40,000 nt of DNA from Paenibacillus algorifonticola (GTDB lineage Bacteria; Bacillota; Bacilli; Paenibacillales; Paenibacillaceae): assembly GCF_050481745.1 (NCBI RefSeq), contig NZ_JBCNGR010000013.1:81214-121213 (forward strand), in the 5' to 3' direction. The notes beneath the pieces are model-generated. The model had not been told where the DNA came from. It ran no database searches and saw only the letters and a list, made by a program, of their open reading frames with translations. The first letter of the stretch is position 1. The number at the start of each line of letters is the position of its first letter. A program made the translations under genes and the position numbers. Of this stretch, positions 488-19,697 are shown piece by piece.

Positions 488-491
488 TCTA

Positions 492-3904: not shown

Positions 3905-6900
3905 CGTAGTCTCCACGAAGCTCACTTCCCGATAATATTATAAAACCAACTGAATCCAAACGAACATGCGGCTTCTTAATGCCAGCCTGCATTGCTTGAT
4001 GTAAATCAGATTCGAAAGCCAAATCAATACGGTCGAATTGTCCATGAATTTGCTGCGTTTTGGCTCTTAACGCCAATTGCTGAAATTGTCGGTTTAATTC
4101 TTGGCGCATCGACTGCAGTGCTTCCTCACATGCCGTGACTACAGATGCATCTTGCATCAAAAGTCGTTCCGAACTTTCACGGGCACAGGCGCACGAGGTA
4201 TGCCACTGGTCAGGCGAGATAAATTCATCTATTACATTTAATCGTTCTTTGGTTAAATTCGTATCGTTACCAAAATCGCTTAATTTCTCAAACGGTGTTT
4301 TCAAGGCTTCTATAACATTGGAGTCATTCACCAGACTACCGCTTGGTGTTACGTTAACTGTGTATATAAAGGGCGGAAAAAACCTATCCAGTTTTCTTTG
4401 CAAAGCTTTTCTATTATATGCTTTACCGTCTATGGAAGAATAGATTGTTTCTGCTGCGGAGACGTTACCTTCGATGATATAATTGAAGCTAAACCCGAAC
4501 CACTCGAAACCTTTCTTGGGATTCCATCCCTTTACTTTGCGCCAAAATGCAAAGGTTCGCCCACGATCATCCCACTTTATGTCATCATCCAGCATTTGAA
4601 TAAAAGGATCTCCAATACGATATATTCGACAATTTTCTTGGGAGGCTGCCGTCATCCGATCATAACTGCCATACCTACTATTAATTTTCGCCATTGCAAT
4701 TGAAGTAGAGATAGGCAATAATGTTTGGCGAGTTGGGGAGTAAGTTAATTCCCCTGATTGTGCATTGGATGATTTACAAGCAAACTTCAGTGCATTAAGA
4801 ACCCACGCCTCCGTGTTCTTTTGAATACGTGCATGATCAGATTCATATGCCACCAAATTTCGAACATATCCATGCACATCGTCATAGCTCGAATCCATTT
4901 CGTCCAGTGCATTTTGTTCCTCTACTTGAATCCTTTCCTCCTCTAGGCGATCTGCGAAAGACTCCCTTACATAATGAATAAAACTTTGAGCACCCTCAGC
5001 ATAAAAGCGACCATAAATTTCTGGAAGGATTCGGTCGATCAGAAATTGCAATGACGAAATGGAGTTTTGAAACACCTTAAGTCCTTCATTCAAGAATATA
5101 TACCAAGCCTCAATCAATGATGGATGATCTGGTCCGGTGAATACATGGGTAGAAAACATTCGAGTACGTCCTAAACGATCTACACGACCTATTCTTTGCT
5201 CCATGCGGCCGGGTTGTGTAAGCAAATCAAAATGTACAATCATATCCGCAAATTGCAAATTGCGTCCTAACTCTCCTGAAGGATCGCAAACCAGTACCCA
5301 ACACTGCTCATTGTATCTAAAACGCTCAATTTCTTGTTCCACTTGGACATCGCTCAATGTTTTGAGATATGGGGCGATTGCCTCAGCTTTGTATACAGAT
5401 CTTAGATGATTAACGATGAAATTTGCCGTAGCATAGTGTCCCGCAAAAACAACAATTTTAGGTGACGTCTTTTTCTTTTTACGTGTCTGTTCCGTAACCG
5501 TATCAATGACCATGACAAGGTGATCCAACCTGTCCTCTTCTTCGGAAGAACAATCAACTGTGTGGAGCAATGACTCAAGTAACTCTCGTTCACCTGAAAA
5601 TAATGGTGTCTCGCGCAATAGTTCGGCCAATTCCGTATTGTAAAGTTCCTTGAATGAGTTGCTTATCTCTCCAGACAATCGCGCCTCTAGTACGTGCCGG
5701 AATACAGGAAGTGCAGAATTCGATAACTCCAATAAATAAAAAAATAACCTTTGATACTTAGTTGAGTGGGAAAATCCATATTCCTGCCATTCTTCCCTTT
5801 CTAAGGCCCACGACGTTTCACGCCATTCATCCATTAAATCCTGAACGGAGGCAGTTCGATTGTCAAAATCGTATTCCTCAGATACTGAGAGTTCACCGCG
5901 TTCAAGATCACGTCCGTACCTAAAAAGTTGTTTTACCGTATCACGACGATTTCGCAACATTCTCCGGTGCAGTCGGTACGTTTCCGTCAAATGATTCCTA
6001 ATAGTCCGTACGGCTGTTATACGTTTTTCTTCATCATTTTTATCCAGAGCATCTAGTAAATACTCCACATTACTGGTCATCAAAACGTCATCTGACACAA
6101 GTTCCAGCAATTTTTCAGCAGATCTACGTAAAAGAAGTGGCTTCGCATTCTCTCGTAAGGTGAACAATATTCTCCCCACATGTTGGCGAATAGAAATAAG
6201 TTTTTGAAATCTTTCAATCTCATCAAGATGGTAATGATCTGGATCTAATAAGTGAAGCATAGCTAGGAAATCTTGTTCATTATGAAGTACCGGTGTTGCA
6301 GATAACAACAACAACCCACGAGCTTGATTTGTTAACTTTTCGACCAAGTGATACAGTTCGCGCTCCTCTTCTATAAGACTCGATGCCTTCGCAGCAATGA
6401 TATGTGCTTCATCAATGATAATTAAATCCCAATCTTTCTCTTGCAGCAAGTTACTACTTGAAGACAACCTTTCAGTTGCACACCATGTAATCTGATCGGT
6501 GAATTCGTACAAATTACATTTGCTATGTAATTCTGATTGCCACTGAATCTGTAAAAATAAAGGAACCACAATGAGAACCGATGAGTTTGGATAATCCAAT
6601 AAAAACTGACGAATTATTACTCCTGCTTCAATCGTCTTTCCGAGACCCACCTCGTCTGCAAGCAAATATCGGGGGACTGGGTCTTCTGATACTCTCCGAA
6701 TAACTTCCACTTGATGGGGATACAGCGAAACAGAAGATGAAAGAAGACCTTCCATCCCACGTCCTACTTTTCGCTGATTCATCATTTCTTTTACAAAAAG
6801 GGTACGTTTACGATTAAAAAAAGCTGTCTCATGTCCCTTGTTGATGATAATATCCATGGGATCTTCAATAGGAAGTGAGCAACGGACAAACAAATTTTCT

Positions 6901-7319
6901 GAGTCAATGTAATTTGAATAGGAGTCAGGAAAGTCAACTTGATAATCTGTTCCATCAAATCCTGTGATACGGCCTATCATCCAGTGCTTTTTATTCGATT
7001 CCCAATAATAGCAACGTGTTTGAATGTCCGGCTTAACAAGTTGTATCTGGCTCAGTCCGATATTTAACCTTTTCCTATTTTCAATGGAAATGAAATACTC
7101 TACAGTTACCATTTCTTCAAACTGATCAATCACTTTTCCTATACCCATATTGTTTAGAGCGATAATGAATCTTCCAATTACATTTTCCATTAGAATAGTC
7201 CTATCCATTCCGAATTTATTGAATGCTATAATAAAAAAATTATCTCCAGAACATTTCAAGTGGTAATCCTTTCTATAAATGTTACCATAAAACCTAAGTA
7301 TAATCTTGCCAATATTCAA
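3897..7319 (-). CDS. SNF2/RapA-like helicase-ATPase with an extra ~450-aa C-terminal region
   Basis: Motifs: LLADEVGLGKTIEAG (I), IIIDEAHIIAA (II, DEAH), LLLSATPVLHNEQDF (III), GELGRNLQFADMIVHFDL and QRIGRVDRLGR (V/VI). The true start is probably an internal Met (ATG 7208 or 7190, MENVIGRF...). That would leave room for a divergent promoter region shared with the plus-strand MBL gene. Confidence 0.85.
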   Translation of the reverse strand: MNIGKIILRFYGNIYRKDYHLKCSGDNFFIIAFNKFGMDRTILMENVIGRFIIALNNMGIGKVIDQFEEMVTVEYFISIENRKRLNIGLSQIQLVKPDIQTRCYYWESNKKHWMIGRITGFDGTDYQVDFPDSYSNYIDSENLFVRCSLPIEDPMDIIINKGHETAFFNRKRTLFVKEMMNQRKVGRGMEGLLSSSVSLYPHQVEVIRRVSEDPVPRYLLADEVGLGKTIEAGVIIRQFLLDYPNSSVLIVVPLFLQIQWQSELHSKCNLYEFTDQITWCATERLSSSSNLLQEKDWDLIIIDEAHIIAAKASSLIEEERELYHLVEKLTNQARGLLLLSATPVLHNEQDFLAMLHLLDPDHYHLDEIERFQKLISIRQHVGRILFTLRENAKPLLLRRSAEKLLELVSDDVLMTSNVEYLLDALDKNDEEKRITAVRTIRNHLTETYRLHRRMLRNRRDTVKQLFRYGRDLERGELSVSEEYDFDNRTASVQDLMDEWRETSWALEREEWQEYGFSHSTKYQRLFFYLLELSNSALPVFRHVLEARLSGEISNSFKELYNTELAELLRETPLFSGERELLESLLHTVDCSSEEEDRLDHLVMVIDTVTEQTRKKKKTSPKIVVFAGHYATANFIVNHLRSVYKAEAIAPYLKTLSDVQVEQEIERFRYNEQCWVLVCDPSGELGRNLQFADMIVHFDLLTQPGRMEQRIGRVDRLGRTRMFSTHVFTGPDHPSLIEAWYIFLNEGLKVFQNSISSLQFLIDRILPEIYGRFYAEGAQSFIHYVRESFADRLEEERIQVEEQNALDEMDSSYDDVHGYVRNLVAYESDHARIQKNTEAWVLNALKFACKSSNAQSGELTYSPTRQTLLPISTSIAMAKINSRYGSYDRMTAASQENCRIYRIGDPFIQMLDDDIKWDDRGRTFAFWRKVKGWNPKKGFEWFGFSFNYIIEGNVSAAETIYSSIDGKAYNRKALQRKLDRFFPPFIYTVNVTPSGSLVNDSNVIEALKTPFEKLSDFGNDTNLTKERLNVIDEFISPDQWHTSCACARESSERLLMQDASVVTACEEALQSMRQELNRQFQQLALRAKTQQIHGQFDRIDLAFESDLHQAMQAGIKKPHVRLDSVGFIILSGSELRGDYDE

Positions 7320-7362: not shown

Positions 7363-8504
7363 ATGGATAGGTTTGTGTCTTTGAAGGTTGGACAAGGAGA
7401 TTCTTTTTATCTACAACGTGATAAATATTCAATACTTGTTGATGGTGGACTGGCGGAGAATGGTTTGGCTAAATTCTTCATGGGGGAGCGAGAAAAAATA
7501 ATCGGTAAAAAAAGATTGATGTATTAGTGTGTACTCACAATGATGCGGATCATGCCAATGGTATTCTCGGATTCTTAAAAAATGAAGAACTGTTATGTGA
7601 TGAAGTTTGGTTGCCTGGAATTTGGACAAGTAGATTAAAAGATATACTTGTTAAGCCTTCCATTTTTATTCATGAGCTAGTTCTTGATATTGATAGTAAT
7701 CATTTGGCATATGATCTGGCTACTCTCGGTGATTCTTACTCGGATAACGAGCTGCCGCTAGACAACAGAAATGAATCTGAGGAATATGTACAATTAGAAG
7801 AATTATATAGTGATCTAGAAGCATCTTTAGAAAAGAATTATGATATTCATGATGTAGCGCAATTTCATAGAGGTCCTTATCTATGGGGACTCTCCCCATC
7901 CCATATTGAATTATTTGTGGAAGCAATTAATGCCGCCAAACTTATTAAGGATATAGCAATTGCGGCTTTTCAGAAAGGTGCAAATATTAAATGGTTTGAG
8001 TATGATGAGTATCAATGCTCAGGCGGTATAGACGGTATATTAGAGCCGTTAAATTCAAAAGAAATTAGTACAGTGAAAAAACGAGGTGCTTTAGAATATC
8101 TAGCTCTTGCTATGGCAAATAGACAAAGCTTAGTATTCCATTCTCCTAGTTCTTCAAATGCACCTGCTATACTATTCTCTGCAGACTCTAATTTTGAATT
8201 TAAACAAACCATTCCTTGGTCAAACGGAATGATAATAACCGCATCACATCATGGTTCCAAAAGCAATAGTAATTGCTATCTTCGCTACGAAAATGAAAGA
8301 TCGGAGCATCTAAATTCTATTTGGATCCGTAGTGATGGTCGCTTTAGATCAAGACCTGGTCCTTGGTACTTAAAGATTCAATCTACGCAACGTTACTGCA
8401 CACGATGCAGCCCAGATTTTAAATCCTCACAAAATGTTGAGTTTACTGCTAATAAATCCGAATGGCAATCATCATCAATTGCATGTACATGTGGCCAAAA
8501 GTAA
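7363..8504 (+). pseudogene. MBL-fold (ComEC-like metallo-beta-lactamase) hydrolase gene split by a frameshift in an A7 run
   Basis: Frame A (7363..7527) reads MDRFVSLKVGQGDSFYLQRDKYSILVDGGLAENGLAKFFMGEREKIIGKKRLMY*. This is the usual MBL N-terminus (VGQGD...ILVDGG). Frame B (the ORF-track 7527..8504) continues with (I)DVLVCTHNDADHANG... and a later SHHGS motif. The two frames join at the A7 tract 7507..7513, and one extra A would give ...IGKKKIDVLVCTHNDADH. Confidence 0.7.
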
Positions 8505-8662: not shown

Positions 8663-8698
8663 AAAAAAACGAACACTCCCTAGGAACGGAATGTTCGT
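8663..8698 (-). terminator. Rho-independent terminator after queE
   Basis: On the minus strand: ACGAACA ... TGTTCGT, a 7-bp stem plus 3 further pairs after one mismatch, followed by a T6 run. It starts 10 nt after the queE stop. Confidence 0.6.
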
Positions 8699-8708: not shown

Positions 8709-9443
8709 TCAAACCCCTCGCTTGTTCCCCCACAACAAAGTGTGTAACTGCGGGAGAACTTTAACCTGTTTCAACTCCGATGATACCATGACTTGATTAA
8801 TCAACCACTCATACCTCTCTAGTAAAGCAAATACCAAACTTTCTCTATCAACTGTCGTTACATCGCTATTTCCGACCTGCAAAACCAGTCTCATGTGAGG
8901 ATAGCGCTTATGAACTTTTATAGCATACTGAAGATCATCTTCGTCAAAAATGACTACTTTAATACATATTTCATTCGGACTATTATTCAAGTTCGTGATA
9001 ACCCCATCTAATCTATCCCAATCGGTTATCATTCCTGAACTTGGTGGTTTTGGGGAAACCGTCAAGTCGTCAATATCCGCCATCCAATCTTGCCATCTGC
9101 TTCCTTGTGTTTCTAACCCAACTCGAATCCCCTTATCATGAAGCAAATCGACCAAATATCCAATATTCTTTATAATTGCTGGATTACCGCCAGAAATTGT
9201 TACATGCTCGAACGTGGTTCCACCAAGAGAATTCAATTCATCGTAAATCGCTTGAGGAGACAATTGTTTAATTTCATTCTTTGCAGAACCATCCCATGTA
9301 AAGGATGAGTCACACCATGAACAGGAATAGTCACAACCAGCTGTCCGAACAAACATCGTTTTTTGCCCGATTACCAGGCCTTCCCCCTGAACAGTTGGCC
9401 CGAATATTTCTAAAACCGGGATAGGATTTTCTTTGTGAGTCAA
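8709..9443 (-). CDS. queE: 7-carboxy-7-deazaguanine synthase QueE (Bacillus-type radical SAM)
   Basis: Near-colinear with B. subtilis QueE as I recall it: PVLEIFGPTVQGEGLVIGQKTMFVRTAGCDYSCSWCDSSFTWDG ... VLPQLHTLLWGNKRGV. I prefer TTG 9443 (SD GGGAGTGGA 7 nt upstream, TTGA overlap with the queD stop). The ORF-track alternative is GTG 9455. Confidence 0.93.
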   Translation of the reverse strand: MTHKENPIPVLEIFGPTVQGEGLVIGQKTMFVRTAGCDYSCSWCDSSFTWDGSAKNEIKQLSPQAIYDELNSLGGTTFEHVTISGGNPAIIKNIGYLVDLLHDKGIRVGLETQGSRWQDWMADIDDLTVSPKPPSSGMITDWDRLDGVITNLNNSPNEICIKVVIFDEDDLQYAIKVHKRYPHMRLVLQVGNSDVTTVDRESLVFALLERYEWLINQVMVSSELKQVKVLPQLHTLLWGNKRGV

Positions 9444-9931
9444 TCTGCCATCCACTCCCGTCTTGCTTCAGCATAGCTGGTTGGCGTTTCGAATAACCGG
9501 ACAAACTCAGTTTTTGCGTCCACTTCTTTTGATGAGTATTTGTCCGTACTTAGCGCCGCTTCCATCTGCTCATACAGCCAAACAACTATGTTTTCCGCAG
9601 TCGTGTTCATTAATGGCAATGTTTCATTTAGATATCTGTGGTCTAAGAATGGTTCAATTTGCTCACGCCAAATTGTTTTCAGCATGCTAAAGTCTATCGT
9701 CAGGCCAATCTCATTTGTATAGCCACTTATTCCAAAAACCACCTTATAGGTATGGCCATGTAGATTTTTGCATTTGCCTTCATAAGCATGTAAATGATGC
9801 GCGGCGTCAAAAGTGAATTCCTTACTGACCAATACTCTGCGTTGATGATATTTTAACTGATCTTCAGTAATATCCTTTCCATACTTTTGCAATGCATCTA
9901 CAATGACAAATTGCCCTGGTACTTTATTCAT
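9440..9931 (-). CDS. queD: 6-carboxy-5,6,7,8-tetrahydropterin synthase QueD
   Basis: [28 protein letters not shown] matches the QueD/PTPS signature. ATG 9931 overlaps the queC stop (ATGA). The ORF-track start at 10003 lies inside queC and is an artefactual extension. Confidence 0.9.
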
Positions 9932-10599
9932 GACATTTGCTCCGAATTTCTTGTCTGTAAAAAAGTATCCAGACCAGCTTTTCTCAACTGACAAGCTGGA
10001 CAATTACCACAACCGTCACCGATAACCCCGTTATAGCAGGTTAATGTCTTCTTACGTACAAATTCAAAAGCACCTAACTGATCAGCCATCTCCCACGTCT
10101 CTGCTTTATTAATCCACATCAACGGAGTATGAATGATAAAGTTATGATCCATCGCTAAATTTAACGTTACATTTAGAGATTTAACGAAATCATCCCTACA
10201 GTCGGGATAGCCACTGAAATCTGTTTCGCATACACCTGTTACAATATGTCGAGCTCCTACTCCTTTAGCAAAGACCGCCGCGAAACTTAAAAATAAGTGG
10301 TTTCGTCCTTCTACAAATGTACTTGGAAGTTCGCCATCATTATGAACAATTTCTACGTCATCACGCGTCAACGCATTTTGAGTTAATTGGCCGAGTAGGC
10401 TCATATCAAGTAAAGTCCATTTTACTCCTAATTCATAAGCAATTTGCTTAGCACATTCAATTTCTAATGCATGCCTTTGACCATAATTGAAGGTGACAGC
10501 CTCCACCTCATCAAATTGCTTCATTGCCCAAAACAAACAAGTTGTACTATCTTGACCGCCACTAAATACAACAACGGCTTTTTTGTTTTTTTTATCCAT
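9928..10599 (-). CDS. queC: 7-cyano-7-deazaguanine (preQ0) synthase QueC
   Basis: [19 protein letters not shown] (PP-loop), [15 protein letters not shown], and the C-terminal zinc motif [16 protein letters not shown]. Colinear with B. subtilis QueC. Confidence 0.95.
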
Positions 10600-10633
10600 T
10601 TGCTTAACCTACTTTCTTACCAGTCTCATTTTA

Positions 10634-10642
10634 ATGATAACA
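10634..10642 (-). promoter_or_regulatory. Candidate extended -10 (TGTTATCAT) upstream of queC
   Basis: The minus strand reads TGTTATCAT 35 nt upstream of the queC ATG. The -35 is weak (TTTCGA at 17 nt). No riboswitch-like structure is visible in this 68-nt gap. Confidence 0.35.
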
Positions 10643-10667
10643 GATGTGCTACCATATCGAAAGTTGA

Positions 10668-13600
10668 CTATTTATCGTCTCCAACAACTAATCTAATCTC
10701 TACAACATCAAACAAGTTGGGGAATTTTTCTTTAATCTCATCCAGCAGACGCTTCCATTGTATTGGAGGAAGTGTACTATATCCATTTTCGATAAGTAAT
10801 CGGATATGCCGTTTTATGGAGGGTCTAATTTGTGGGCTTTCGTTGATTTTTTCTAGTAGGTGATAGATACTTTCAACATCTTCACAATCAAAATCATTTC
10901 TGATTACTTGAAGAAGGTGCAATTTGGTCTGCTCATGTTGAAGTTTTCTTTCGATCCGATCTCTTAGTTCATAGAAATCTATAGATTGCCATTCAGCAAT
11001 TAAGGAACTTAATTCAGCACCAATGTGTTTCTTTTTTTTCAGACGATTTACACCATTCTCCAATCTAATCAGGAGTTTCTTTATATGCTCTAAATCCCCT
11101 AGCTTAATTTGAAGATCCAGCAGATACTTCACTAAATTTCGTGGAGTAAGAGCAAGGCAGTTTTTCAAACTTTCCAATTCCTGAATAATAATTATGAAGT
11201 TAGCTTTACCCGCCTCTAATTCAGACCAGTTTACTTCGTCCTTTTTATTGATTTTCGCTTCTTCTTGTTCATAATTTGTTTGCGCGCAACTCTCAGTGAG
11301 AAGACTTTCAACTTCAAGCATCATCTCGTCAAATTGTTTACTCAACTGTCTCATCTCACTAAATAAAATAGTAGCACTTTTATATTGAGCGGCGAGTGCT
11401 TGATCATCCAATTCTTGTTCCAGCAAAGTGTAAGCAACAAAGTCTTGTTGTGTAATACTCTTCTTCTCGCTAAAAGCTTTAATTTGTTCAGCAAGTTCTA
11501 TCAATTTCAAATTATTGGAGCCAAGTAAAAAAGGAATCATGTTCATCCTTTTTTCGAGTGACTGCTTAAAGCTATCTTGAAGTAGTTTAAAGTATTTATG
11601 GTAACTTTCTTTCAATTGGGATAGAAATACCCGTAGAGTAGTATCTCCAATTTGATAGTGTTCTAAGATTTTCGATGGCACAAGATTCATAAACCAATAA
11701 TCAAATTCTTCATTCGTCAAAACCGCTTTACTAGGCGGCTGAAAAAAGTTATCACGTAACAAGTACCAATCTGAATAACAATCCTCAAGAAGAGCTAATA
11801 ATTCTGTTCGGAATGGAGAATATTCAATTACATTTGAGGCCCAAGATGATTTGCTGTATATTTGAGCATTTTGAACCCAGTATTTCATCCCGTACACAAA
11901 TACAGGAAGATTCAACCCAAGAGCCTGTTCAAGAGAATTAAGCCATTCATCATGGATTGACTCTGCTTGATGTATCCATTTAGCAATTTCATATTCATTG
12001 GAATTTTTCTGAAACATCCTTACCTTTTCTGAATACTTCATGGTTTGAAAGTTGGCAATTTGAATAGCAATAAATCCTCTGCTGACGCTTATTGTAGACT
12101 CATCCTTGTTATTCTGGAGTGTAATCGGATACCTTGTTCGATTCACAACTTCATTTCGCTGAATGGATGATGAAGTTTTGGATGTGAATGAGCGGGACAT
12201 ATGAATTCCCTTTACAGCATCATGCACCAATGCAGCCACCCCCGATCTAACCGGCAATAATAATTCTTCATTTACATCTCTTCCTTCTACCCAATCTCTA
12301 ACCACTGCCTTTTCATTGAAGCCATTATTACTATCTTTTTTCGGCTCATCAAGTAATTGCTGCTCATCTCTTAAGCTACTTCCAACACTATTTAGTTTCA
12401 CAGTGATTTGATTATCCTTATATCCAAAGTACCTTAATACAGGTTCTGAAATTGTAATCTTCTCCGCTTCTTCAGAGGCATACCATTCTGCGAGAGTTTT
12501 GATAAAAACATCCGAATGCTCAGCGAACATCTCCCTCCTTATTATAGGAAGTATTCTACTAATATCTTTCTTACCTCTTAGAAAAAAGCGAATAACTTCT
12601 TTACTATTCAAAATCATGTAACGTAATTTCCCTTTTCCCATTGGAATTGCATCATACGTTCTCCTTAACATATGGCTATTAAATGGAAGCAACTGAACTT
12701 CAATATCATTTAATTTAGATTCAATCTCACTTGATTCCGTGGTAATACTTGAACATTGGTCGTAGTACGGACACTCAGGAGAGCATTTAAAGCCTTGTGT
12801 TGCTTTCAACTGTGTAAGGTACTTAGCCATATAAGGAATTACTTGTCCACGATCTAGGTTGAAAAAGTCTTTCCCTGATTCGTCAGATAGCCATAACTTT
12901 TTTACCCGGTCATTTATGGTGTCAAGATTTTGGATTCTTTGTGTAAGACTGAATCCTTTTTCTGTATCCTGAACCGCGCCAGGCGTTAGACCAATTACTA
13001 CATCCCAATTCCCCTCTTCTAATGTAATAAGTTGATCCAATATATTGGTTGCGTAAATATTAACCGATTGAACAAGATCGTCAATGAGAAGCAATGGACG
13101 GATACCCTTGCTTTTTATCTGCTGGGATAATTGTTTAAACAGGGTTCCAATGTCCCGTCCTTCAAACAGAAAATGGTCCAGTTTCCGAGAAAGTGTTTGT
13201 CGAAATGTTGCATACTCCAGGGGGATATTAACAGTCGTGTTAACAAGTAACGATTCGAATTGCTCACGATGTAGAACTTCTAGTGGTTTTTTGATTCTTC
13301 CTCGTTTAACTTGAGAAGTAAATTCTACAATATTCTTCTCAATTATTGATCTCAACAATAGTGCTGCTGGAACAATTTCCTCATCGGATTCTAGCGATTC
13401 GGCAAGTGCCGTCCAGACCATTTGGTTAACAAGCGTAATAGGCTTTTTGAGTAATAGCCCCCACTTATCTTCGTCAATACAAACATCTAAAGACAAATTT
13501 AATGCGTCTAAACATTTTTTGATTAGTGTCTGGGGGTTTAACTCTGTCCGTGAAATTCGTATCACCGGTCGTTCAGATACTTCCACTAACCATTTATCTT

Positions 13601-13859
13601 TTATCCAACGAAGCAGTTCAGATTTCCCTGATCCCGTCGAGCCAAATACTAAATAAACCCTGTTGCCATCGGAATCAACTTCTTTGAGTTCTTCCAGCAA
13701 TTCGCCTTCCGTAACCTCAGCGATCAGATGACTGTCATTAAATCTATGCATTACTTGAGGGAAATGGGTTTTTCTAAAATACTCAGGTGATTGGTCGTAA
13801 CGCTCGTCTGCAGTTCCTACTAAAAGTTTAAGCGAATTTTTGTTGAGACAAGGCATCAT
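10668..13859 (-). CDS. Large (1063 aa) P-loop NTPase with a long helical, coiled-coil-like C-terminal half
   Basis: Walker A is VFGSTGSGKSE (residues ~72-80) and Walker B-like is RPLLLIDDLVQ (~255-263). The start ATGATG at 13859 has SD GAGAGGGGA 10 nt upstream. It overlaps the upstream ORF by 32 nt. It is paralogous to the partial ORF at 1..487. Confidence 0.8.
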   Translation of the reverse strand: MMPCLNKNSLKLLVGTADERYDQSPEYFRKTHFPQVMHRFNDSHLIAEVTEGELLEELKEVDSDGNRVYLVFGSTGSGKSELLRWIKDKWLVEVSERPVIRISRTELNPQTLIKKCLDALNLSLDVCIDEDKWGLLLKKPITLVNQMVWTALAESLESDEEIVPAALLLRSIIEKNIVEFTSQVKRGRIKKPLEVLHREQFESLLVNTTVNIPLEYATFRQTLSRKLDHFLFEGRDIGTLFKQLSQQIKSKGIRPLLLIDDLVQSVNIYATNILDQLITLEEGNWDVVIGLTPGAVQDTEKGFSLTQRIQNLDTINDRVKKLWLSDESGKDFFNLDRGQVIPYMAKYLTQLKATQGFKCSPECPYYDQCSSITTESSEIESKLNDIEVQLLPFNSHMLRRTYDAIPMGKGKLRYMILNSKEVIRFFLRGKKDISRILPIIRREMFAEHSDVFIKTLAEWYASEEAEKITISEPVLRYFGYKDNQITVKLNSVGSSLRDEQQLLDEPKKDSNNGFNEKAVVRDWVEGRDVNEELLLPVRSGVAALVHDAVKGIHMSRSFTSKTSSSIQRNEVVNRTRYPITLQNNKDESTISVSRGFIAIQIANFQTMKYSEKVRMFQKNSNEYEIAKWIHQAESIHDEWLNSLEQALGLNLPVFVYGMKYWVQNAQIYSKSSWASNVIEYSPFRTELLALLEDCYSDWYLLRDNFFQPPSKAVLTNEEFDYWFMNLVPSKILEHYQIGDTTLRVFLSQLKESYHKYFKLLQDSFKQSLEKRMNMIPFLLGSNNLKLIELAEQIKAFSEKKSITQQDFVAYTLLEQELDDQALAAQYKSATILFSEMRQLSKQFDEMMLEVESLLTESCAQTNYEQEEAKINKKDEVNWSELEAGKANFIIIIQELESLKNCLALTPRNLVKYLLDLQIKLGDLEHIKKLLIRLENGVNRLKKKKHIGAELSSLIAEWQSIDFYELRDRIERKLQHEQTKLHLLQVIRNDFDCEDVESIYHLLEKINESPQIRPSIKRHIRLLIENGYSTLPPIQWKRLLDEIKEKFPNLFDVVEIRLVVGDDK

Positions 13860-14604
13860 TTAAATCACATCCCCTCTCTACCTTTATCCAATTAAATTCG
13901 TTTTTAGGTCCATATGATTTATAAGGTAAATCTTGCATGTAACTTAGTTTCAACTCTCCTTCTTGATGTAATGCCATTAAAGAAAAGATAACCCCTCTGT
14001 AGATGTTCCCTTCAGTTGTTAGGCATGGTATAACCGGATCAATTATCTTTTCACAAAATGGATGCAATCCTCCCTCCCATGTCTCATTCCTCTTAATGAT
14101 ACTTTTCATTAACGAAAGCTGTGGAAGTGCATAGAAGCCTGAGTAAATACGTCTACCCAATCCCCAGCATTCCATCATTCGCTTCCACGCATTCACTTTC
14201 TCTTGCCCAACTAGTGTTTTCTTTAATTGGCTATTGATTTGGTAGTGAATATTACTCAAAAACAATTTATCCGGCTTTACAAATAACTGTTCAAATAGGG
14301 AAGCAAATACTTTATCAAGTGAATCGCTAGGTATATTTTCAGAATTTGAAAGTTCCCTCAATTTTAAAAAAACCTCTTTGTTGCACCATGGCTTGTCCTG
14401 TAGTACAAAATATTGTGATTTGTCTTTATATATAAACTGTAAATCCTCTAATACGATCAAACTACATTCAATTAACGATGTGATGTCCCCGCTATCAACA
14501 TGCTGAAATCTTGTTTTTAACTTCTCTACATCCAGTCCAGGATTAATTCTTAAATTTTCATAAATCACTTCAATTTCCGGTCCGTAGCACATTTGAAACA
14601 ACAT
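13828..14604 (-). CDS. Hypothetical 258-aa protein; partner of the 1063-aa ATPase and distant paralogue of the ORF at 492..1382
   Basis: Strong SD AAGAGGAGGAG lies 5 nt before ATG 14604. It overlaps both neighbours, by 35 nt upstream and 32 nt downstream. No recognisable catalytic motif. Confidence 0.65.
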   Translation of the reverse strand: MLFQMCYGPEIEVIYENLRINPGLDVEKLKTRFQHVDSGDITSLIECSLIVLEDLQFIYKDKSQYFVLQDKPWCNKEVFLKLRELSNSENIPSDSLDKVFASLFEQLFVKPDKLFLSNIHYQINSQLKKTLVGQEKVNAWKRMMECWGLGRRIYSGFYALPQLSLMKSIIKRNETWEGGLHPFCEKIIDPVIPCLTTEGNIYRGVIFSLMALHQEGELKLSYMQDLPYKSYGPKNEFNWIKVERGCDLNDALSQQKFA

Positions 14605-15502
14605 GCTCGCTCCTCCTCTTATTATTTTCTAAAATATCGTTAAATGTTCTAAGTAAGTGGTAATAGTTATGGATTGATCTTAACTTCATATATTCTCTTG
14701 GAGATGGGACTAAGATCTGCTTTGCGTCATTTTCACATACAGGGCATTCACAATTAAGTGGATTTTCCAATCGTGGACTTGTGGGTTTAGCTCGCGATTC
14801 TGAGAGAAAAAAGGTTCTAAATGGTCTGCTATAGAACACTTGAAAGAACGCTGCCGCCATTGTTGGTCGTGTTGAATCAAATGAACTTACGCCAATATCA
14901 ACCATTGCACTAAGTTGGGGAATTCCTGTTACTCCAAATACATGCAGGTTTGAAGGCCCTACAACATCTGCTGCCCTTCTGATCATTTCAATTTGCTGCG
15001 TCTGATGTCTAAAAAGTAACGATCCAATTCCAAATTTCTTATACCCCATCTTGATCAACTCATAAGCTGAAAACTCAATACTAGCTTGGTCATAACCTTG
15101 AATGACTCCCATTGCTTGAACAGATTTCGGAAGATTATATTTATGAAAAATATTGAAATACTCATAAGCATTGAATAGCGTTCTTTCTATAGCCATGAAA
15201 CGTTCAGATAAAGAGGACTTATTTAACAGTGGTTCATCAAAATGAACCATTTGAACATTTGTTTTTTTTTCGCAATCTTCTAAGATTGAGAGCTGAATAT
15301 CAAAAACTTCTTTTAGTGGAGGCCTAATTTTTTGTTTAACATAAAACACTGATCCACAGTCTAGTATTAGCTTGCTAGGTTTATTTTTATACCTTTTTAC
15401 TCCTCCTCTATTGTCCGGTATAGCACTAATTAAAACCGGACATTGAGGAAAGTAATCACAAAATACTGCATCACTGTGTGACCAACCAATATAAAATTCC
15501 AT
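14570..15502 (-). CDS. Second, compact TGT-superfamily (DpdA-like) protein
   Basis: Matches to the 684-aa ORF: ILDCGSVFY (cf. MGDCGAFSY), GVIQGYD...MGYKKFGIGSL (cf. GIVQGWD...LGYDYIALGGL), GVSSFDSTRPT (cf. E. coli Tgt GVDMFDCVMPTR). The zinc motif is CECPVCEN...HNYYH. I prefer ATG 15502 (MEFYIGW..., SD GAAGGAG 8 nt upstream). The ORF-track start at 15580 has no usable SD and sits upstream of a candidate promoter. Confidence 0.75.
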   Translation of the reverse strand: MEFYIGWSHSDAVFCDYFPQCPVLISAIPDNRGGVKRYKNKPSKLILDCGSVFYVKQKIRPPLKEVFDIQLSILEDCEKKTNVQMVHFDEPLLNKSSLSERFMAIERTLFNAYEYFNIFHKYNLPKSVQAMGVIQGYDQASIEFSAYELIKMGYKKFGIGSLLFRHQTQQIEMIRRAADVVGPSNLHVFGVTGIPQLSAMVDIGVSSFDSTRPTMAAAFFQVFYSRPFRTFFLSESRAKPTSPRLENPLNCECPVCENDAKQILVPSPREYMKLRSIHNYYHLLRTFNDILENNKRRSEHVVSNVLRTGN

Positions 15503-15553
15503 ATCCTCATCTCCTTCTACAATAAAAATTACGTGATCATACGTGATATTTTT

Positions 15554-15562
15554 ATTGTAGCA
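15554..15562 (-). promoter_or_regulatory. Candidate internal promoter (extended -10 TGCTACAAT) for the TGT2 / ATPase / queCDE genes
   Basis: The minus strand reads TGCTACAAT just downstream of the terminator at 15593..15620. It is followed by a tandem ATCACGTA repeat on the minus strand (plus-strand TACGTGAT at 15530..15537 and 15540..15547), then the SD of TGT2. Confidence 0.4.
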
Positions 15563-15592
15563 CATCTCACCAGCACTCATCTACTCTTTGAA

Positions 15593-15620
15593 TAAAAAAA
15601 AGAAGCCATCAGGCTTCTTT
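15593..15620 (-). terminator. Rho-independent terminator at the end of the 264-aa ORF, inside the gene array
   Basis: On the minus strand: AAAGAAGCC-TGAT-GGCTTCTTT, a 9-bp stem and 4-nt loop that contains the TGA stop, followed by TTTTTTATT. Confidence 0.65.
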
Positions 15621-16403
15621 TATCCATTGTCTCCATATTTCATATATTAAACCGCGTTGTGCATCATTAAATTTAAAATTTCCTTTATTAACAAGTAGAA
15701 CTGGATTGTCTCTGTCAAAAAACTGACCTTTCCAATTCTCATAATTGAATTCCTCTGAGAGTAGTGGCCGCGGCAGATTGGTTAACTGAGAATCCTCAGT
15801 CCATTGCTCCATGAAATATCTAATATAGCAATACCAAGCAATGGCTGAGTCGGCAATGGATTTTTTTCGAAACTGTTTTCTCTGTGCTACAGGAAGATAC
15901 CCTAGTTCAGGATAATCACTCATTATAGAGTCAACATATTTAATCAAATCTTTAGCTAATCGAGGGCATAAACTACGTTCAACTCGATACCTTTGAAAAT
16001 CCTTAAAAATATCATACAGCGATCTAAAAGTCATTAATTTAGTGGAGTTGCTACTTATTTTCTCCCCCTTTTCAATCAACCGTTCGAAACGCTTATAAGA
16101 CATTAACTGATGCATACAGTAACTCGGAAAGTGTTGGGTTTCAGATACAATTAGAACGACGTATTCATCGCTCATACTGCCGCTGGGCAGTTTATAAGTA
16201 AACCGGGGATTCGTCACTTGTAACTCATTGTTTATTAAACTTAACACAGTATCATAATTTACTAAAATGACCTCTTCGCCAATTACATCAGACTGAATTA
16301 CAGGAAAACCCCAGTCTTTAATAACCCCTAATGGCAGTACTGTAAAATAAACGTCATCATTCTTTCTAGTTAAATTGCTTACGTTTTCAAAAGTAAAAAC
16401 CAT
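15609..16403 (-). CDS. Hypothetical 264-aa protein located between the two TGT-like genes
   Basis: SD GGGGGA lies 6 nt before ATG 16403. Codon usage is coherent and AT-rich, like the neighbours. I recognise no motif (no P-loop, no DGQHR). Confidence 0.6.
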   Translation of the reverse strand: MVFTFENVSNLTRKNDDVYFTVLPLGVIKDWGFPVIQSDVIGEEVILVNYDTVLSLINNELQVTNPRFTYKLPSGSMSDEYVVLIVSETQHFPSYCMHQLMSYKRFERLIEKGEKISSNSTKLMTFRSLYDIFKDFQRYRVERSLCPRLAKDLIKYVDSIMSDYPELGYLPVAQRKQFRKKSIADSAIAWYCYIRYFMEQWTEDSQLTNLPRPLLSEEFNYENWKGQFFDRDNPVLLVNKGNFKFNDAQRGLIYEIWRQWIKEA

Positions 16404-16418
16404 GAAATTTCCCCCAAC

Positions 16419-16457
16419 GCAAATATGCCTTAGTGTACCACACTAAGGCATGTTTGC
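16419..16457 (-). other. Strong intercistronic stem-loop (18-bp stem, one mismatch, 3-nt loop) with no U-tract
   Basis: On the minus strand: GCAAACATGCCTTAGTGT-GGT-ACACTAAGGCATATTTGC. It sits between the stop of the 684-aa ORF (16461) and the SD of the next ORF. Confidence 0.6.
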
Positions 16458-16460
16458 GCA

Positions 16461-18497
16461 CTATTTATCCCATCGTTTTTTTAATTCCTGGATCTGAGTG
16501 TAGTAGACATGGGTATTGTGAAACCCTCTCCGTCTGTTTCTATTATTACCCCTAAATACAATCACATCAATTCCAATTTCCCTGCATATATTACAACCAC
16601 ATTGTTCCCATGGACGTTCAGACAAAACCTCTCTATAAAGATCCTCATGAACTTCGCGCTTTTCCCCAAGTATTTTATCATACTCCAGTATAGCTTCAAG
16701 TGTGGGTTCTAGTTCTCTTGTTCCCGCACTGAAATTCCTAAGAGCACTTAATGCCTCCTGTTCAAGCCTTCTATACTCCGCAAACTCAATTTCATCACTA
16801 TTCTGCAACATTTTTTTCACTCTTCCAGATGTTTCTTTCGCTTCTGGGATTCTAATCGCTGTGTAATGTTTACCACTCAAGGAGTGATAATTATGCCCTG
16901 TTCCTAACCACGCTCTTCTCAACGGAGAAGAAGAGTCAAATGATGTTACACCTAATTTATGAAAAGACTCCATTGTTCTCACATCTCGCGCAACACCGAA
17001 CAAGTGCATCCGAAACGTAGGGCTTGGAATAATAGGAGATATTTCTTTTAGAATCTCATATATTTTCTCAGATTGTTCTCTAGCTAAACCACCTAGGGCA
17101 ATATAGTCATAACCTAATTCAATAAGATGCTCTACTGCTCTTCGGAAAGAAGGCGGGTCCCATCCTTGGACTATACCTATAGGATGGAACTGATAATTCC
17201 TGGTTTCTCTGTCCTCCCTATACATGCGTATAAATTCTTCCGCCATAGTAAGGGTTAGTTCATAACGCTGATTTCTAATATTTTCGTCTCTCTGGAAGGG
17301 ACCCACTATTAGATGGTCAATTGATACCCCATAATCAAAACCCAAGTTGTGGTAGTAATCCATAATCTCTTGGGTCGTATACGGCGGTACTTCTTTATCA
17401 ATATAACTAAAGGCACCACAATCCCCCATAATCGGGTATTCCCTAGGTAGTCGATAAAAATCATGTAACCCCATATCTTTTATCATCTGATTTTTTTGCT
17501 TAGTAGCATTATCAATATTAACTTTAGAAACAAGCAGTCCATCAAACTGAGGTCTTTCAAAAATCTGATGAGCGTACACATCATTTTCTAATGGATTTCT
17601 GTTTTTTTCTGAAAAATCAGCCATAAAATCATAGTGTGGATCGACTCTATCATCATTCTCTGGAAGATAAAATCTGGGTTCCTCAATGCAATTTATAGCT
17701 ACTAACTCATCTGGTACAGGAAACATTTCATTATAGAACTGTAATAAATCTTCTTTTTCAGATGCGTCACTAAATAACTCAGGTTGTTTTGTTGAAGCAA
17801 TTGAATCCAAAATAAACTCTCTAATCTGATCAGGATGATATTTTATTGTTCTCCACTTCTGTTCAATGTTATCTGTAATAATATTCCTCAGTAAGTGTGC
17901 AAAAAGATAACCTTTGATTCCTATCAAACCATATTTAAATGTTTTAGCTTCTTTTTCTCCAATAGTTAATACATGATAATCGTCCCAGTTTAGAATTCGA
18001 GAACGACTAGATGCTCCTGCGAAAAAGATCGCTTTTTGATTACTTTGCAACTTTAATGGCCACTCCACCGCTTGCAAATATTTGTCTCCAAGTAAGAAGA
18101 ATACAAGATCATAATCAGCAATTTTTTTTTGTAGATTTTGTGTGACTTCAAGTTGACGCGCCCACTTTTTTATAGTCTGCGAGTCCATTGTATTAAAAGT
18201 CACTTCATACGGTACAATTTGCGCATCTTCATTCAAAAGACCATAACCCGCTGAAATAATGCAAAGATCAATTTTCCCACCTTGTTTCCGGTATTCTTTA
18301 ATACCACTCATTAGCGCAAGGTGTTGACTCCCTGTATACATTTCATCAGCACGTTCTCTGAATTCCAACAATTCTGCTTCTCTTTGTTTTAATATTTTTT
18401 TATTCTTGAAATCATCAAATACAAGTTGATTTATTGGTTTATGTAACTTCTCTCCAGTACAAGAAGTGACAACAAGAATACGTTTTGACACAAACAT
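16461..18497 (-). CDS. DpdA-like TGT-superfamily transglycosylase fused to an N-terminal ~280-aa domain
   Basis: The C-terminal ~400 aa read RFYLPENDDRVDPHYDF..., MGDCGAFSY, GIVQGWD, GVTSFDSSSPLRRA, with zinc motif CGCNIC...GFHNTH. The N-terminal part reads ILVVTSCTGEK...CIISAGYGLLNEDAQIVPYEVTF. That pattern reminds me of YaaA/DUF328-type proteins ([21 protein letters not shown]), but this is weak recall. The start is probably ATG 18497 or GTG 18491, not the ORF-track GTG 18515. Confidence 0.8.
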   Translation of the reverse strand: MFVSKRILVVTSCTGEKLHKPINQLVFDDFKNKKILKQREAELLEFRERADEMYTGSQHLALMSGIKEYRKQGGKIDLCIISAGYGLLNEDAQIVPYEVTFNTMDSQTIKKWARQLEVTQNLQKKIADYDLVFFLLGDKYLQAVEWPLKLQSNQKAIFFAGASSRSRILNWDDYHVLTIGEKEAKTFKYGLIGIKGYLFAHLLRNIITDNIEQKWRTIKYHPDQIREFILDSIASTKQPELFSDASEKEDLLQFYNEMFPVPDELVAINCIEEPRFYLPENDDRVDPHYDFMADFSEKNRNPLENDVYAHQIFERPQFDGLLVSKVNIDNATKQKNQMIKDMGLHDFYRLPREYPIMGDCGAFSYIDKEVPPYTTQEIMDYYHNLGFDYGVSIDHLIVGPFQRDENIRNQRYELTLTMAEEFIRMYREDRETRNYQFHPIGIVQGWDPPSFRRAVEHLIELGYDYIALGGLAREQSEKIYEILKEISPIIPSPTFRMHLFGVARDVRTMESFHKLGVTSFDSSSPLRRAWLGTGHNYHSLSGKHYTAIRIPEAKETSGRVKKMLQNSDEIEFAEYRRLEQEALSALRNFSAGTRELEPTLEAILEYDKILGEKREVHEDLYREVLSERPWEQCGCNICREIGIDVIVFRGNNRNRRRGFHNTHVYYTQIQELKKRWDK

Positions 18498-18512
18498 CCC
18501 ATCCCTTATTAA

Positions 18513-18545
18513 CACAATATAAAATAGGGCGTTCCCGCCCTATTT
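18513..18545 (-). terminator. Terminator/attenuator-like hairpin between the transporter gene and the DpdA-like gene
   Basis: On the minus strand: AAATAGGGCG-GGAA-CGCCCTATTT, a 10-bp stem with a GNRA-type loop. It lies directly after the TAG stop at 18546 and is followed by TATATTGTG, so the U-tract is only moderate. Confidence 0.5.
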
Positions 18546-19019
18546 CTAAACAGCTTTTGCATGTTTGAAAAAAACTTTTTTAACAATGATTGCAGCAAAT
18601 ATTTGAACCAATGTCTTAACAATGATTTGGCCAACAATCGCCAGAAATACAGCATTCCATGGAAGAATATTCGCTCCCAATGGGGATAGACCCACAACAA
18701 CAAAGATAATACTGTCTAGTATTCCTCCAACAATCCCACTGTATGCTACCCTCATATGAAAAGGTAATTTAAGGCGCGAATAGATTTCGGTATCAGTGGT
18801 CTCAGATACTGCAAACGTAATAATTGAGGCAAACACAATCCAAAGTGTGTCCCCTAGTAAATATGATGTTAATGCTGATAAAACCATGGCTAATAGAATA
18901 AGTAAATAGGTATTCCGCCGACCAACAAAATTTTGCACAAAATCACGGAATATAAATGTTGCCCCTATTATAAAAGTCCCTGCCGGGATAATAAAGGGTC
19001 CAATAAAAAACGGCGCCAC
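18546..19019 (-). CDS. VUT/YhhQ-family (queuosine-precursor) transporter; the 5' end lacks a canonical start and is possibly degraded
   Basis: Multi-TM protein with FRDF..., ...DSIIF... segments typical of DUF165/VUT. The frame stays open and hydrophobic for 20 more codons upstream (YLTIVAYLLAIVSSNVVTAG, cf. the E. coli YhhQ ITSSN segment as I recall it). That stretch has no ATG, GTG or TTG. See the finding for this region. Confidence 0.6.
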   Translation of the reverse strand: MAPFFIGPFIIPAGTFIIGATFIFRDFVQNFVGRRNTYLLILLAMVLSALTSYLLGDTLWIVFASIITFAVSETTDTEIYSRLKLPFHMRVAYSGIVGGILDSIIFVVVGLSPLGANILPWNAVFLAIVGQIIVKTLVQIFAAIIVKKVFFKHAKAV

Positions 19020-19117
19020 TCCTGCTGTTACAACATTTGATGAAACGATAGCCAGTAAATAAGCTACGATGGTTAAATATTTAATTTTACATCACCTCTT
19101 CAATTTGATCCATCACC

Positions 19118-19126
19118 AATTATAAC
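19118..19126 (-). promoter_or_regulatory. Candidate promoter (perfect extended -10 TGTTATAAT) for the minus-strand transporter/DpdA-like genes
   Basis: The minus strand reads TGTTATAAT. The -35 region is occupied by an imperfect palindrome at 19132..19157 (TTTGG-TTC-CGAG-CTACC-CTCG-CCAAA on the plus strand) that could act as an operator. Confidence 0.4.
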
Positions 19127-19289: not shown

Positions 19290-19697
19290 TTGAATAATTA
19301 TGGAAAATCTGCTATTCGAGCAGTAGAACTCATTCAATCCGGTGAAGTTCCTTATACGGAAGATGCCTGGAAAAAAGCGACCACAGAATTTTTCACAATT
19401 AAAACCAAGGCATGTCCCAGAAGTGCTTTTTTGGGGATTTGCGAAGCAGGCTTAATAAAAGGTGTTCATCAGATACATATCAAACAGCCTCTCAAAAATA
19501 CAATTAACAAAGATCATGCGATTGAAGCTGTTCAACTGCTCACAGAAAATGAAGATTACGCTTCATACAAATCGCTTCAGTTGTGGAGGATTATTATGCT
19601 AGGAAATCAAAAGTCACATAATTTCCAAATGGACGTTGTACTGGCACTATGGAACAATGGCATGATTTCCCCCGCTAAAACTTATATTATGGCTTAA
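19290..19697 (+). CDS. Hypothetical 135-aa protein, the last gene of the island
   Basis: TTG start with SD GGAGG 8 nt upstream. The segment ...KACPRSAFLGICEAGLIKG... resembles a small conserved family of unknown function. A bidirectional terminator follows. Confidence 0.55.
   Translation: MNNYGKSAIRAVELIQSGEVPYTEDAWKKATTEFFTIKTKACPRSAFLGICEAGLIKGVHQIHIKQPLKNTINKDHAIEAVQLLTENEDYASYKSLQLWRIIMLGNQKSHNFQMDVVLALWNNGMISPAKTYIMA

Follow-up and report, generated by a model that had tools for sequence, protein, structure and literature searches.

A Dpd-type island without detectable DpdB in Paenibacillus algorifonticola, organized around a DpdC::DpdA fusion

How might a Dpd island mark DNA when the partner of its base-exchanging enzyme is missing? 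The activity of DpdA in vitro requires the ATPase DpdB (PMC10164549), and the question is raised by a 40,000-nucleotide (nt) stretch of the Paenibacillus algorifonticola genome (assembly GCF_050481745.1, contig NZ_JBCNGR010000013.1, positions 81,214 to 121,213), called the window here, whose own coordinates are used throughout. An earlier note, made from the sequence alone, had proposed that it holds a Dpd-type system with a non-canonical layout. This proposal is borne out: profile searches for the full canonical dpdA-K set, which that note had advised, place a DpdA domain, DpdE, DpdF and DpdG above their curated cutoffs and leave DpdB absent. The families of open reading frames (ORFs) were assigned by Pfam, by NCBIfam at curated cutoffs and by PADLOC profile matches. 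Four genes are referred to as the core: a fusion of DpdC to DpdA (DpdC::DpdA), a minimal ORF resembling tRNA-guanine transglycosylase (TGT) and called TGT2, a 258-amino-acid (aa) ORF called DpdG′ (G′), and a 1063-aa ATPase called DpdH′ (H′). The last three make up the triplet, and a 264-aa orphan is called X264. The island genes lie nearly all on the minus strand, where they are transcribed in the order Vut/YhhQ-like gene, 684-aa fusion, X264, TGT2, G′, H′, queC, queD, queE and hairpin; a split metallo-β-lactamase (MBL)-like gene on the plus strand comes next, and then DpdE, DpdF, DpdG and the first 147 aa of DpdH.

The DpdC::DpdA fusion and the triplet

Two TGT-superfamily ORFs had been picked out in the earlier note by their motifs, and both are present. 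The larger, a 684-aa ORF on the minus strand (16461-18515), carries GVTSFDSSSP and CGCNIC...H. Its residues 278-684 (16464..17684, minus strand) form a DpdA domain that matches NF041059 over residues 281-677 with 453 bits (cutoff 200), and the solved DpdA structure (PDB 7UI4) with 302 bits. In DpdA, Asp95 is the general acid/base and Asp256 the nucleophile, while Asp130 and His181 contact the base (PMC10164549). Alignment with 7UI4 places the equivalents of Asp95, Asp130, Asp256 and the Zn site in the fusion, within the segments GDCGAF, VSIDH, TSFDSSSP and CxCxxC..H. The position of His181 is taken by Gln in both the fusion and TGT2. A Gln at this position is also found in tRNA Tgts.

Residues 1-277 of the same ORF (17685..18515, minus strand) match Pfam DUF6884 (51 bits, cutoff 30) and PADLOC DpdC (E=7e-11), DUF6884 being the Pfam domain of DpdC according to the GATOR-GC preprint (PMC11888242). 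The earlier note had found nothing it could call DpdC, and thereby overlooked this domain. The family profile of the fusion N-terminus aligns with canonical Enterobacter cloacae DpdC (hhalign probability 96.7%, 229 columns, positions 4-297 of 318). The signature motifs of DUF6884 in Pfam are CxxxK and LSAxxG (PMC11701544), and both CxxxK and SAGxG show at least 93% conservation across 27 fusion proteins. Judged by these alignments, the 684-aa protein is a complete DpdC domain joined to a canonical-type DpdA with all of its catalytic residues. In three loci of Bacillus/Neobacillus type (L004, L020 and L029) the fusion reaches 849-881 aa, some 170-200 aa beyond the 670-715 aa of the others.

TGT2, the second TGT-superfamily ORF, carries GVSSFDSTRP and CECPVC...H. 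Its ORF spans 14570-15580, and the likely true start gives a minimal enzyme of 310 aa (14570..15502, minus strand) that matches Pfam TGT with 58 bits. It falls under every curated cutoff: 74 bits for DpdA NF041059 (cutoff 200), in a match limited to profile positions 85-263, 28 bits for tRNA Tgt TIGR00430 (307) and 26 bits for archaeal TgtA (350). Since the fusion reaches 40 bits against the same Q_tRNA_tgt cutoff of 307, both TGT-like ORFs stand outside tRNA Tgt, in keeping with their assignment to a Dpd-type system in the earlier note. The FDS motif and the Zn motif are separated by about 40 residues in TGT2, against about 128 in DpdA, a protein of about 400 aa with a large Ins8 insertion. 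About 82 relatives of TGT2 exist at the 90% clustering level; all are about 300 aa long and are named “queuine tRNA-ribosyltransferase” in their sources. Across 22 members, down to 36% identity, the equivalents of the three active-site Asp residues, the VIQG segment and the Zn ligands are invariant, the motifs being DCG/DSG, xDxP, VIQG, S-DS-RP and CxCxxC..H.

The AlphaFold model of TGT2 made from the 22-member alignment (pLDDT 91.3, pTM 0.88) shows a complete (β/α)8 barrel. In Foldseek, it comes as close to bacterial Tgt (query-normalized TM-score (TMq) 0.68-0.75, 14-17% identity) as to DpdA 7UI4 (TMq 0.69, 15% identity). Over 1.84 billion representative proteins, the TGT2 profile picks out 36 (E≤1e-30) or 816 (E≤0.001); the next-best long matches that were sampled are true DpdA proteins (377-477 bits). 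No PHROG entry matches at E≤0.01, and tblastn against 50,697 phage genomes (E≤1e-3) gives no relative; a phage origin is rejected on these results. By these comparisons TGT2 is a small family of its own, with bacterial DpdA (bDpdA) as its nearest outgroup and without most of Ins8; its conserved residues and modeled fold indicate that it is probably a distinct, active transglycosylase.

G′ (13828..14604, minus strand) and H′ (10668..13859, minus strand) come next. The earlier note had recognized the latter as a 1063-aa P-loop ATPase, which it is, and had listed it beside two orphan ORFs, one of them the 258-aa ORF. The ATPase and the 258-aa ORF are no unrelated extras: family alignments of G′ and H′ from related loci were compared with alignments of canonical DpdG, DpdH and DpdI, drawn from the annotated islands of E. 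cloacae, Nostoc, Agrobacterium, Deinococcus and Paenibacillus, and G′ matches DpdG (hhalign probability 95.3%, E=2e-8, 219 columns) as H′ matches DpdH (99.6%, E=2e-23, 492 columns), with all cross-controls at 0.7% or less. Walker A (GxxGSGKS, residues 73-80) and Walker B (LLxDD, 257-261) of H′ are at least 90% conserved and align with the DpdH motifs. DpdH/I have been called BrxC-like in a 2025 preprint (10.1101/2025.09.15.676423). G′ has no match in the curated families of Pfam, NCBIfam (NF041064 included) or PADLOC, and H′ reaches 28 of the 450 bits that NF041065 demands. At the level of profile alignment it is clear that G′ and H′ are diverged paralogues of DpdG and DpdH (in H′, a BrxC-like P-loop ATPase) by remote homology, and not members of these families by curated cutoffs. 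The reading frames of TGT2 and G′ overlap by 35 nt and those of G′ and H′ by 32 nt; the stretch from TGT2 through to queE yielded no terminator-like hairpin.

Of the two ORFs that the earlier note had left as orphans, the 258-aa one is thus a diverged DpdG, and only X264 remains without relatives of known type (15609..16403, minus strand; no match in Pfam, NCBIfam or PADLOC). Its AlphaFold2 model (pLDDT 76) has no structural match, and a comparison with DpdB found no similarity. One P. algorifonticola protein is 100% identical to X264. Homologues are found in Paenibacillaceae and Bacillaceae islands only, and the islands of Chloroflexota, Deinococcus, Laceyella and L016 gave no match to X264. 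Detected in Bacillales alone and lacking from several islands, X264 is an accessory. A terminator-like hairpin with a T-run follows it (15598..15621, minus strand), and a near-perfect palindrome with a 19-bp stem (16418-16458), a terminator-like hairpin on both strands, separates it from the fusion gene.

Recurrence of the core and absence of DpdB

A survey with the TGT2 alignment against species-representative genomes yielded 25 loci. Those from Bacillota belong to Paenibacillus, Brevibacillus, Fontibacillus, Gorillibacterium, Bacillus/Neobacillus, Laceyella, Thermoactinomyces and a Dethiobacter metagenome-assembled genome, and four are from Chloroflexota, including Dictyobacter kobayashii. 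The fusion, G′ and H′ accompany TGT2 in every locus with enough flank; in Dethiobacter and Chloroflexota the gene order and strands are rearranged, and the four core genes are still together. The same four genes lie beside DpdE-I on a plasmid of Deinococcus taeanensis, and plasmid pART37 of Paenibacillus sp. 37 carries a complete island, whose names from the Prokaryotic Genome Annotation Pipeline (PGAP) run dpdA/hypothetical/queuine tRNA-ribosyltransferase/hypothetical/P-loop NTPase/dpdJ/dpdK/.../dpdF/.../dpdJ. As far as homology searches can tell, the DpdB-less layout is a recurrent one, found in about 27 genomes of three phyla (Bacillota, Chloroflexota and Deinococcota). The term “Gram-positive layout” used in the earlier note was therefore too narrow, for Chloroflexota and Deinococcota have this core too.

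The searches for DpdB covered about ±10 kb at each of 27 variant loci, plus two complete replicons. In the window itself no model, sequence or motif match was obtained, which agrees with the earlier failure to see a DGQHR-motif DpdB there. DGQHR, DndB and ParB models from Pfam, NCBIfam and PADLOC match no island ORF, and two canonical DpdB sequences (by phmmer) and a hidden Markov model built from them match nothing in the window or the 27 variant loci. On the complete 543-kb pART37 and on the Deinococcus plasmid, DpdB has no match even at E≤10. Among ORFs of at least 150 aa in the variant loci, the DGQ[HQ]R motif is found only in a 717-aa ORF of the D. kobayashii locus (L028), where it stands in a DGQQRLTT context that looks DUF262-like, possibly of DUF262/GmrSD type. 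One divergent DndB-like gene, that of the cyanobacterium Allocoleopsis PCC 7113, went unseen in the DpdB searches and was caught by the motif scan. As this organism has the fusion together with that gene, the fusion is rejected as the cause of DpdB loss.

On plasmids with an unfused dpdA, dpdB mostly sits directly beside it, and DpdB is present in 92% of dpdA genomes (2016 review, PMC5699537); it may be dispensable in some clusters (2026 paper, PMC12839542). Thiaville 2016 and Yuan 2018 apart, the literature covered describes neither the companions of DpdA in DpdB-less clusters nor the DpdB-less layout with fusion and triplet, of which the supplements of those two papers could hold a mention. 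A 776-aa protein, P0164, is a natural DpdA-DpdB fusion (DpdA 454 bits over residues 1-408, DpdB 401 bits over residues 416-762), which suggests a physical partnership of the two proteins in canonical systems, though no stable complex has been seen in vitro.

preQ0 genes, restriction genes and module exchange

The genes for 7-cyano-7-deazaguanine (preQ0) are QueC, preQ0 synthase (9928..10599, minus strand; TIGR00364 277 bits, cutoff 150; Pfam QueC 280 bits), QueD, 6-carboxytetrahydropterin synthase (9440..9931, minus strand; TIGR03367 101 bits, cutoff 89; Pfam PTPS 115 bits), and QueE, 7-carboxy-7-deazaguanine synthase of the Bacillus subtilis type (8709..9455, minus strand; TIGR03365 371 bits, cutoff 206). 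Their ends overlap, and a terminator-like hairpin with a T-run follows queE (8669..8698, minus strand). The overlapping queC-queD-queE operon with a terminator and no queF was thus correctly described beforehand: a scan of the operon and of the window's larger ORFs turned up no queF, and no further base-tailoring gene (queF or Gat-QueC type) was found in the island. At the other end of the transcription order lies the VUT/YhhQ-type transporter, rightly named in the earlier note, a putative importer of preQ0 or queuosine precursors (18546..19085, minus strand; Pfam Vut_1 58.5 bits; TIGR00697 39 bits, below its cutoff of 51). Read from GTG 19019, its ORF gives 157 aa, which is probably too short, homologues having 170-186 aa. 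For about 22 further codons upstream the frame remains open (KYLTIVAYLLAIVSSNVVTAG); this extension contains no ATG, GTG or TTG and is directly preceded by a GAGGTG Shine-Dalgarno sequence. This open upstream frame with a Shine-Dalgarno sequence but none of the three usual codons suggests a non-standard start codon. No preQ1 riboswitch was found across the whole window at Rfam gathering thresholds, and one upstream of Vut or queC is rejected, as positions 18400-19900 at E≤1 gave terminator hairpins only.

The restriction genes lie on the far side of queE, all on the minus strand. They are DpdE, a SNF2-family helicase (3897..7319, called start 7190; NF041062 931 bits, cutoff 500; PADLOC E=1e-218); DpdF, a RecQ-like DEAD/DEAH helicase (1379..3925, called start 3904; NF041063 858 bits, cutoff 550; PADLOC E=2e-199); canonical DpdG (492..1382; NF041064 114 bits, cutoff 80; precomputed Pfam PF28110 DpdG); and the N-terminal part of DpdH (1..487; NF041065 178 bits over 147 aa, profile positions 13-162), which leaves the window at the left. 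The earlier note had begun the island at 8709, and this boundary has to be moved, since DpdE, DpdF, DpdG and the DpdH N-terminus occupy 1-7319. The left limit is set by the source contig, Logan SRR28786757_716, which stops within dpdH (gene call of 735+ aa, cut by the contig end). It was also right that no phospholipase D (PLD)-type DpdK is in the window, but this observation is uninformative with a contig that ends inside DpdH. With DpdJ/K/D present in relatives, its absence may be a mere effect of truncation.

Between these restriction genes and queE lies the MBL-like gene on the plus strand (7363..8504), split by a frameshift at about 7525-7527 into a 54-aa ORF (7363-7527) and a 325-aa ORF (7527-8504). 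The two are in different frames, with a CTHNDADH motif where they join. The MBL label is weak, supported only by an HxDxDH-like motif and two matches of about 15 bits; there is no Pfam match at E≤0.001 even with the frameshift repaired, and BLASTP finds no homologue in the seven closest related loci. The gene had been counted as a part of the locus in the earlier note, and this is withdrawn: it is a split hitch-hiker at a module junction, outside the conserved island, and could be a pseudogene or an assembly error.

The island is of low GC (0.35-0.46) and runs from window base 1 to about 19,800, adjoining rlmD with its GC of 0.56. The GC-rich housekeeping flank beside it (about 0.52-0.56) holds rlmD, a lipid kinase, a PHO4 transporter, a histidine kinase, purD, purH and purM. 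No tRNA gene that could have served as an integration site was found across the window. A DUF6979 gene (19290..19697, plus strand; precomputed Pfam DUF6979; phrog_5039 E=1e-16) is divergent to Vut, and the gene recurs at this edge of the island in P. glucanolyticus, P. amylolyticus, P. terricola and Fontibacillus (among loci L002, L006, L009 and L013).

Comparison with relatives indicates, at the level of sequence identity, that the window island is a mosaic. From Vut through queE, the genes of the core and queCDE share 91-100% identity with their counterparts in Paenibacillus sp. NPDC058174 and P. glucanolyticus (L005/L006), whereas for DpdE/F the figure is only 38-41%. With P. tyrfis it is the DpdE/F that share 88-90% identity, against 67% for QueC and 32% for QueD. 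The breakpoint is the queE/dpdE junction, the site of the split MBL-like gene, where the GC changes from 0.35-0.37 to 0.40-0.46. The neighbors of the core vary likewise among relatives. Among relatives sharing the core, matches to DpdJ reach 1213-1805 bits, to DpdK 114-189 bits and to DpdD 357-540 bits; most loci have DpdE-K, L028 has DpdD alone (540 bits) and L027 a split DpdD. Elsewhere the effector neighbors are UvrD with a Cas4-like nuclease (L025), or an AddB-like ORF of about 950 aa with UvrD (Fontibacillus and L010), and pART37 has the latter pair in addition to its Dpd genes. Such a pair, which may be an alternative effector module, comes after the core block or the island at L002 16954-20933, L010 15012-20125 and L030 34578-39652, the AddB-like match being weak, and the equivalent in one Chloroflexota locus is L025 1-3452. 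In D. kobayashii (L028 878-20936), the core and a full DpdD adjoin VirB4-/VirD4-like conjugation ATPases and the 717-aa DGQQR ORF; these ATPases suggest carriage on an integrative conjugative element.

Related systems and possible mechanisms

Like the canonical dpdA-K system of Salmonella enterica serovar Montevideo, the window island has DpdA, a DpdC-type domain and DpdE-H in the same order, together with clustered preQ0 genes and a YhhQ-type transporter, and its relatives add DpdD, I, J and K. Unlike that system, it has no DpdB, its DpdC is fused to the N-terminus of DpdA, its His181 is changed to Gln, and a triplet stands between the fusion and queCDE, X264 being added in Bacillales versions. 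Cyanobacterial clusters such as that of Allocoleopsis/Microcoleus PCC 7113, which Fig. 3 of PMC5699537 lists, share the DpdC::DpdA fusion, about 42-44% identical over its full length, with preQ0 genes and a PLD nuclease nearby. However, PCC 7113 retains a DGQHR protein of DndB type and lacks TGT2, G′ and H′.

Other layouts also contain two TGTs. On a plasmid of Nostoc sp. NIES-3756 (L036 9933-18450), a DpdC::DpdA fusion is accompanied by a 315-aa TGT that, unlike in the window island, is a different short protein set between two DEAD/DEAH helicases. On a plasmid of Halobaculum marinum (L037 12010-23135), a 968-aa DUF6884-TGT fusion occurs with queC/folE/queE/queD, and a separate run holds a 344-aa TGT, a 299-aa ORF and a BREX-type (bacteriophage exclusion) ATPase. 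The short TGTs of Nostoc and Halobaculum are marginally closer to TGT2 than to DpdA; the 299-aa ORF and the BREX-type ATPase have no detectable homology to G′/H′ beyond the P-loop. BRIGADE of haloarchaea (Bell et al. 2025, 10.1101/2025.09.15.676423), with which the Halobaculum plasmid is grouped here, is Dpd-like and combines a 7-deazaguanine cluster, DpdG, a DpdH/I-BrxC-like ATPase and PLD nucleases, but unlike the window island it is defined by ARMADA-like YprA helicases and is reported in haloarchaea only. BREX-Related Capture (BRC) systems (PMC12839542) have a TGT homologue without DpdB and DpdC, along with BrxC-like or STAND NTPases and GNAT, and the NTPase is proposed there to substitute for DpdB. 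In contrast, the window island lacks HerA/FtsK, PglZ, DUF6079 and DUF4007, on which BRC is built, and has DpdC, canonical DpdE-H and two TGT-like proteins. Paired TGT-fold paralogues also work together in eukaryotic QTRT1/QTRT2, whose substrate is tRNA and whose QTRT2 is non-catalytic, whereas both paralogues of the window island keep their catalytic residues. This pair has been raised as an analogy for DpdA needing a partner (Gedara et al., PMC10164549).

A model for the island can be proposed from these comparisons, and we lean, if only by a little, toward a Dpd island of distinct DpdB-less architecture, in which the core would be self-marking, the triplet would supply DpdB's ATP-dependent step and DpdE-H would restrict. 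QueC, QueD and QueE, with the FolE of the host, would make preQ0, which the YhhQ-like transporter could also import. DpdA and/or TGT2 would then exchange guanine in DNA for preQ0, and the fused DpdC domain would convert the preQ0 base to the amide, giving dADG, which stands for 2'-deoxy-7-amido-7-deazaguanosine. During this process the H′ ATPase, with G′ and TGT2, would provide the ATP-dependent step that DpdB gives in Salmonella. Finally, DpdE-H, probably along with I/J/K/D past the contig end, would restrict unmarked DNA. The core is assigned to the self-marking half because it stays constant while effector sets interchange. As for the ATP function, we infer it for the triplet by elimination and co-conservation, since in Salmonella a DpdA of canonical type needs the DpdB ATPase and H′ is here the sole conserved ATPase outside the canonical restriction set.

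Several points weigh against this model. Canonical DpdG and DpdH are, in Salmonella, parts of the restriction half that modification does not require (PMC10164549), so that their paralogues G′ and H′ could equally be restriction or sensing parts. PCC 7113, with its fusion and DndB-like DGQHR gene and without TGT2, indicates that the fusion alone does not remove the need for a ParB-like partner. As the DndB-like gene of this organism was missed, a very divergent ParB-fold protein could escape the searches, and in draft genomes DpdB is possibly encoded far off on the chromosome, beyond about ±10 kb. The model also leaves a second, catalytically intact transglycosylase without a reason.

The paralogy just mentioned is what an assignment of the triplet to the restriction or sensing side would build on, G′ and H′ being a duplicated sensor of DpdG/DpdH type and the TGT fold reading the 7-deazaguanine status or excising guanine from unmarked DNA, while the fusion would modify DNA alone or with a further factor. 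In L027 and L028 the core stands beside DpdD with no other Dpd restriction gene seen, as would fit a minimal unit, and the covalent enzyme-nucleic acid intermediate of TGTs (PMC10164549) could in principle leave an abasic site when no base comes in. Yet a second sensor would be redundant where canonical DpdG/DpdH are already present, as in the window and pART37, and in module swaps the triplet keeps company with the fusion and queCDE rather than with DpdE-K. Why a canonical-type DpdA requires ATP would also be left unexplained, and TGT2 retains the full set of base-exchange residues, those for base recognition included. We consider this assignment unlikely, at roughly one chance in several. 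The intact residues of both transglycosylases would, as far as sequence goes, also suit a triplet that is an independent second marking machine, with TGT2 placing preQ0 or another 7-deazaguanine at a second motif and the fusion acting independently, so that host DNA would bear both the dADG made by the fusion and a second mark made by TGT2, for instance 2'-deoxy-7-cyano-7-deazaguanosine (dPreQ0). A protein without most of Ins8 and 15% identical to DpdA fits another mode of DNA recognition, viral DpdA subfamilies differ in base specificity (PMC10516641), and two-TGT layouts do exist in Nostoc NIES-3756 and Halobaculum. Nevertheless, TGT2 is apart from the DpdC::DpdA fusion in 0/27 loci with enough flank, which argues for dependence; the DpdA domain would still need an ATPase, and no extra base-tailoring gene (queF, Gat-QueC) is at hand for a second base. 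Such a machine appears rather improbable to us.

Least plausible of all, and very doubtful in our view, is an ordinary Dpd island whose DpdB is elsewhere in the genome or replaced by X264, with TGT2 as a tRNA-directed or decaying paralogue. Most loci do come from draft genomes examined over about ±10 kb, X264 has no assignable fold, and PGAP calls TGT2 a “queuine tRNA-ribosyltransferase”. However, neither the complete pART37 nor the Deinococcus plasmid has a DpdB, the islands where X264 was not detected (Chloroflexota, Deinococcus, Laceyella and L016) also lack one, and X264 itself has no similarity to DpdB. TGT2, with its 28 bits against the tRNA Tgt cutoff of 307, is without exception part of the island; strong purifying selection acts on its active site down to 33-36% identity, and its profile, reaching 816 of 1.84 billion proteins at E≤0.001, has bDpdA as the nearest non-family matches.

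Returning to the model of a self-marking core, a tentative extension, which we hold to be possible and no better than that, is that the triplet is an ATP-driven base-exchange machine, in which the BrxC-like ATPase, in place of the ParB-like DpdB, opens or scans DNA for TGT2, the machine working with the fusion or loading it. In BREX, BrxC is needed for modification. If this extension is true, DpdG/DpdH-type proteins would gain a first assigned function and Dpd a mechanistic link to BREX, and the host DNA might bear two distinct 7-deazaguanine marks.

Having no dpdB, the variant would be missed by a large survey anchored on dpdAB (PMC11888242). Since its parts are annotated as “queuine tRNA-ribosyltransferase”, “hypothetical protein” and “P-loop NTPase”, Dpd-like defense is probably under-counted in Bacillota, Chloroflexota and Deinococcota. 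The variant also offers a direct genetic handle on two questions of Dpd biology, namely why base exchange needs the DpdB ATPase, and what DpdG and DpdH do.

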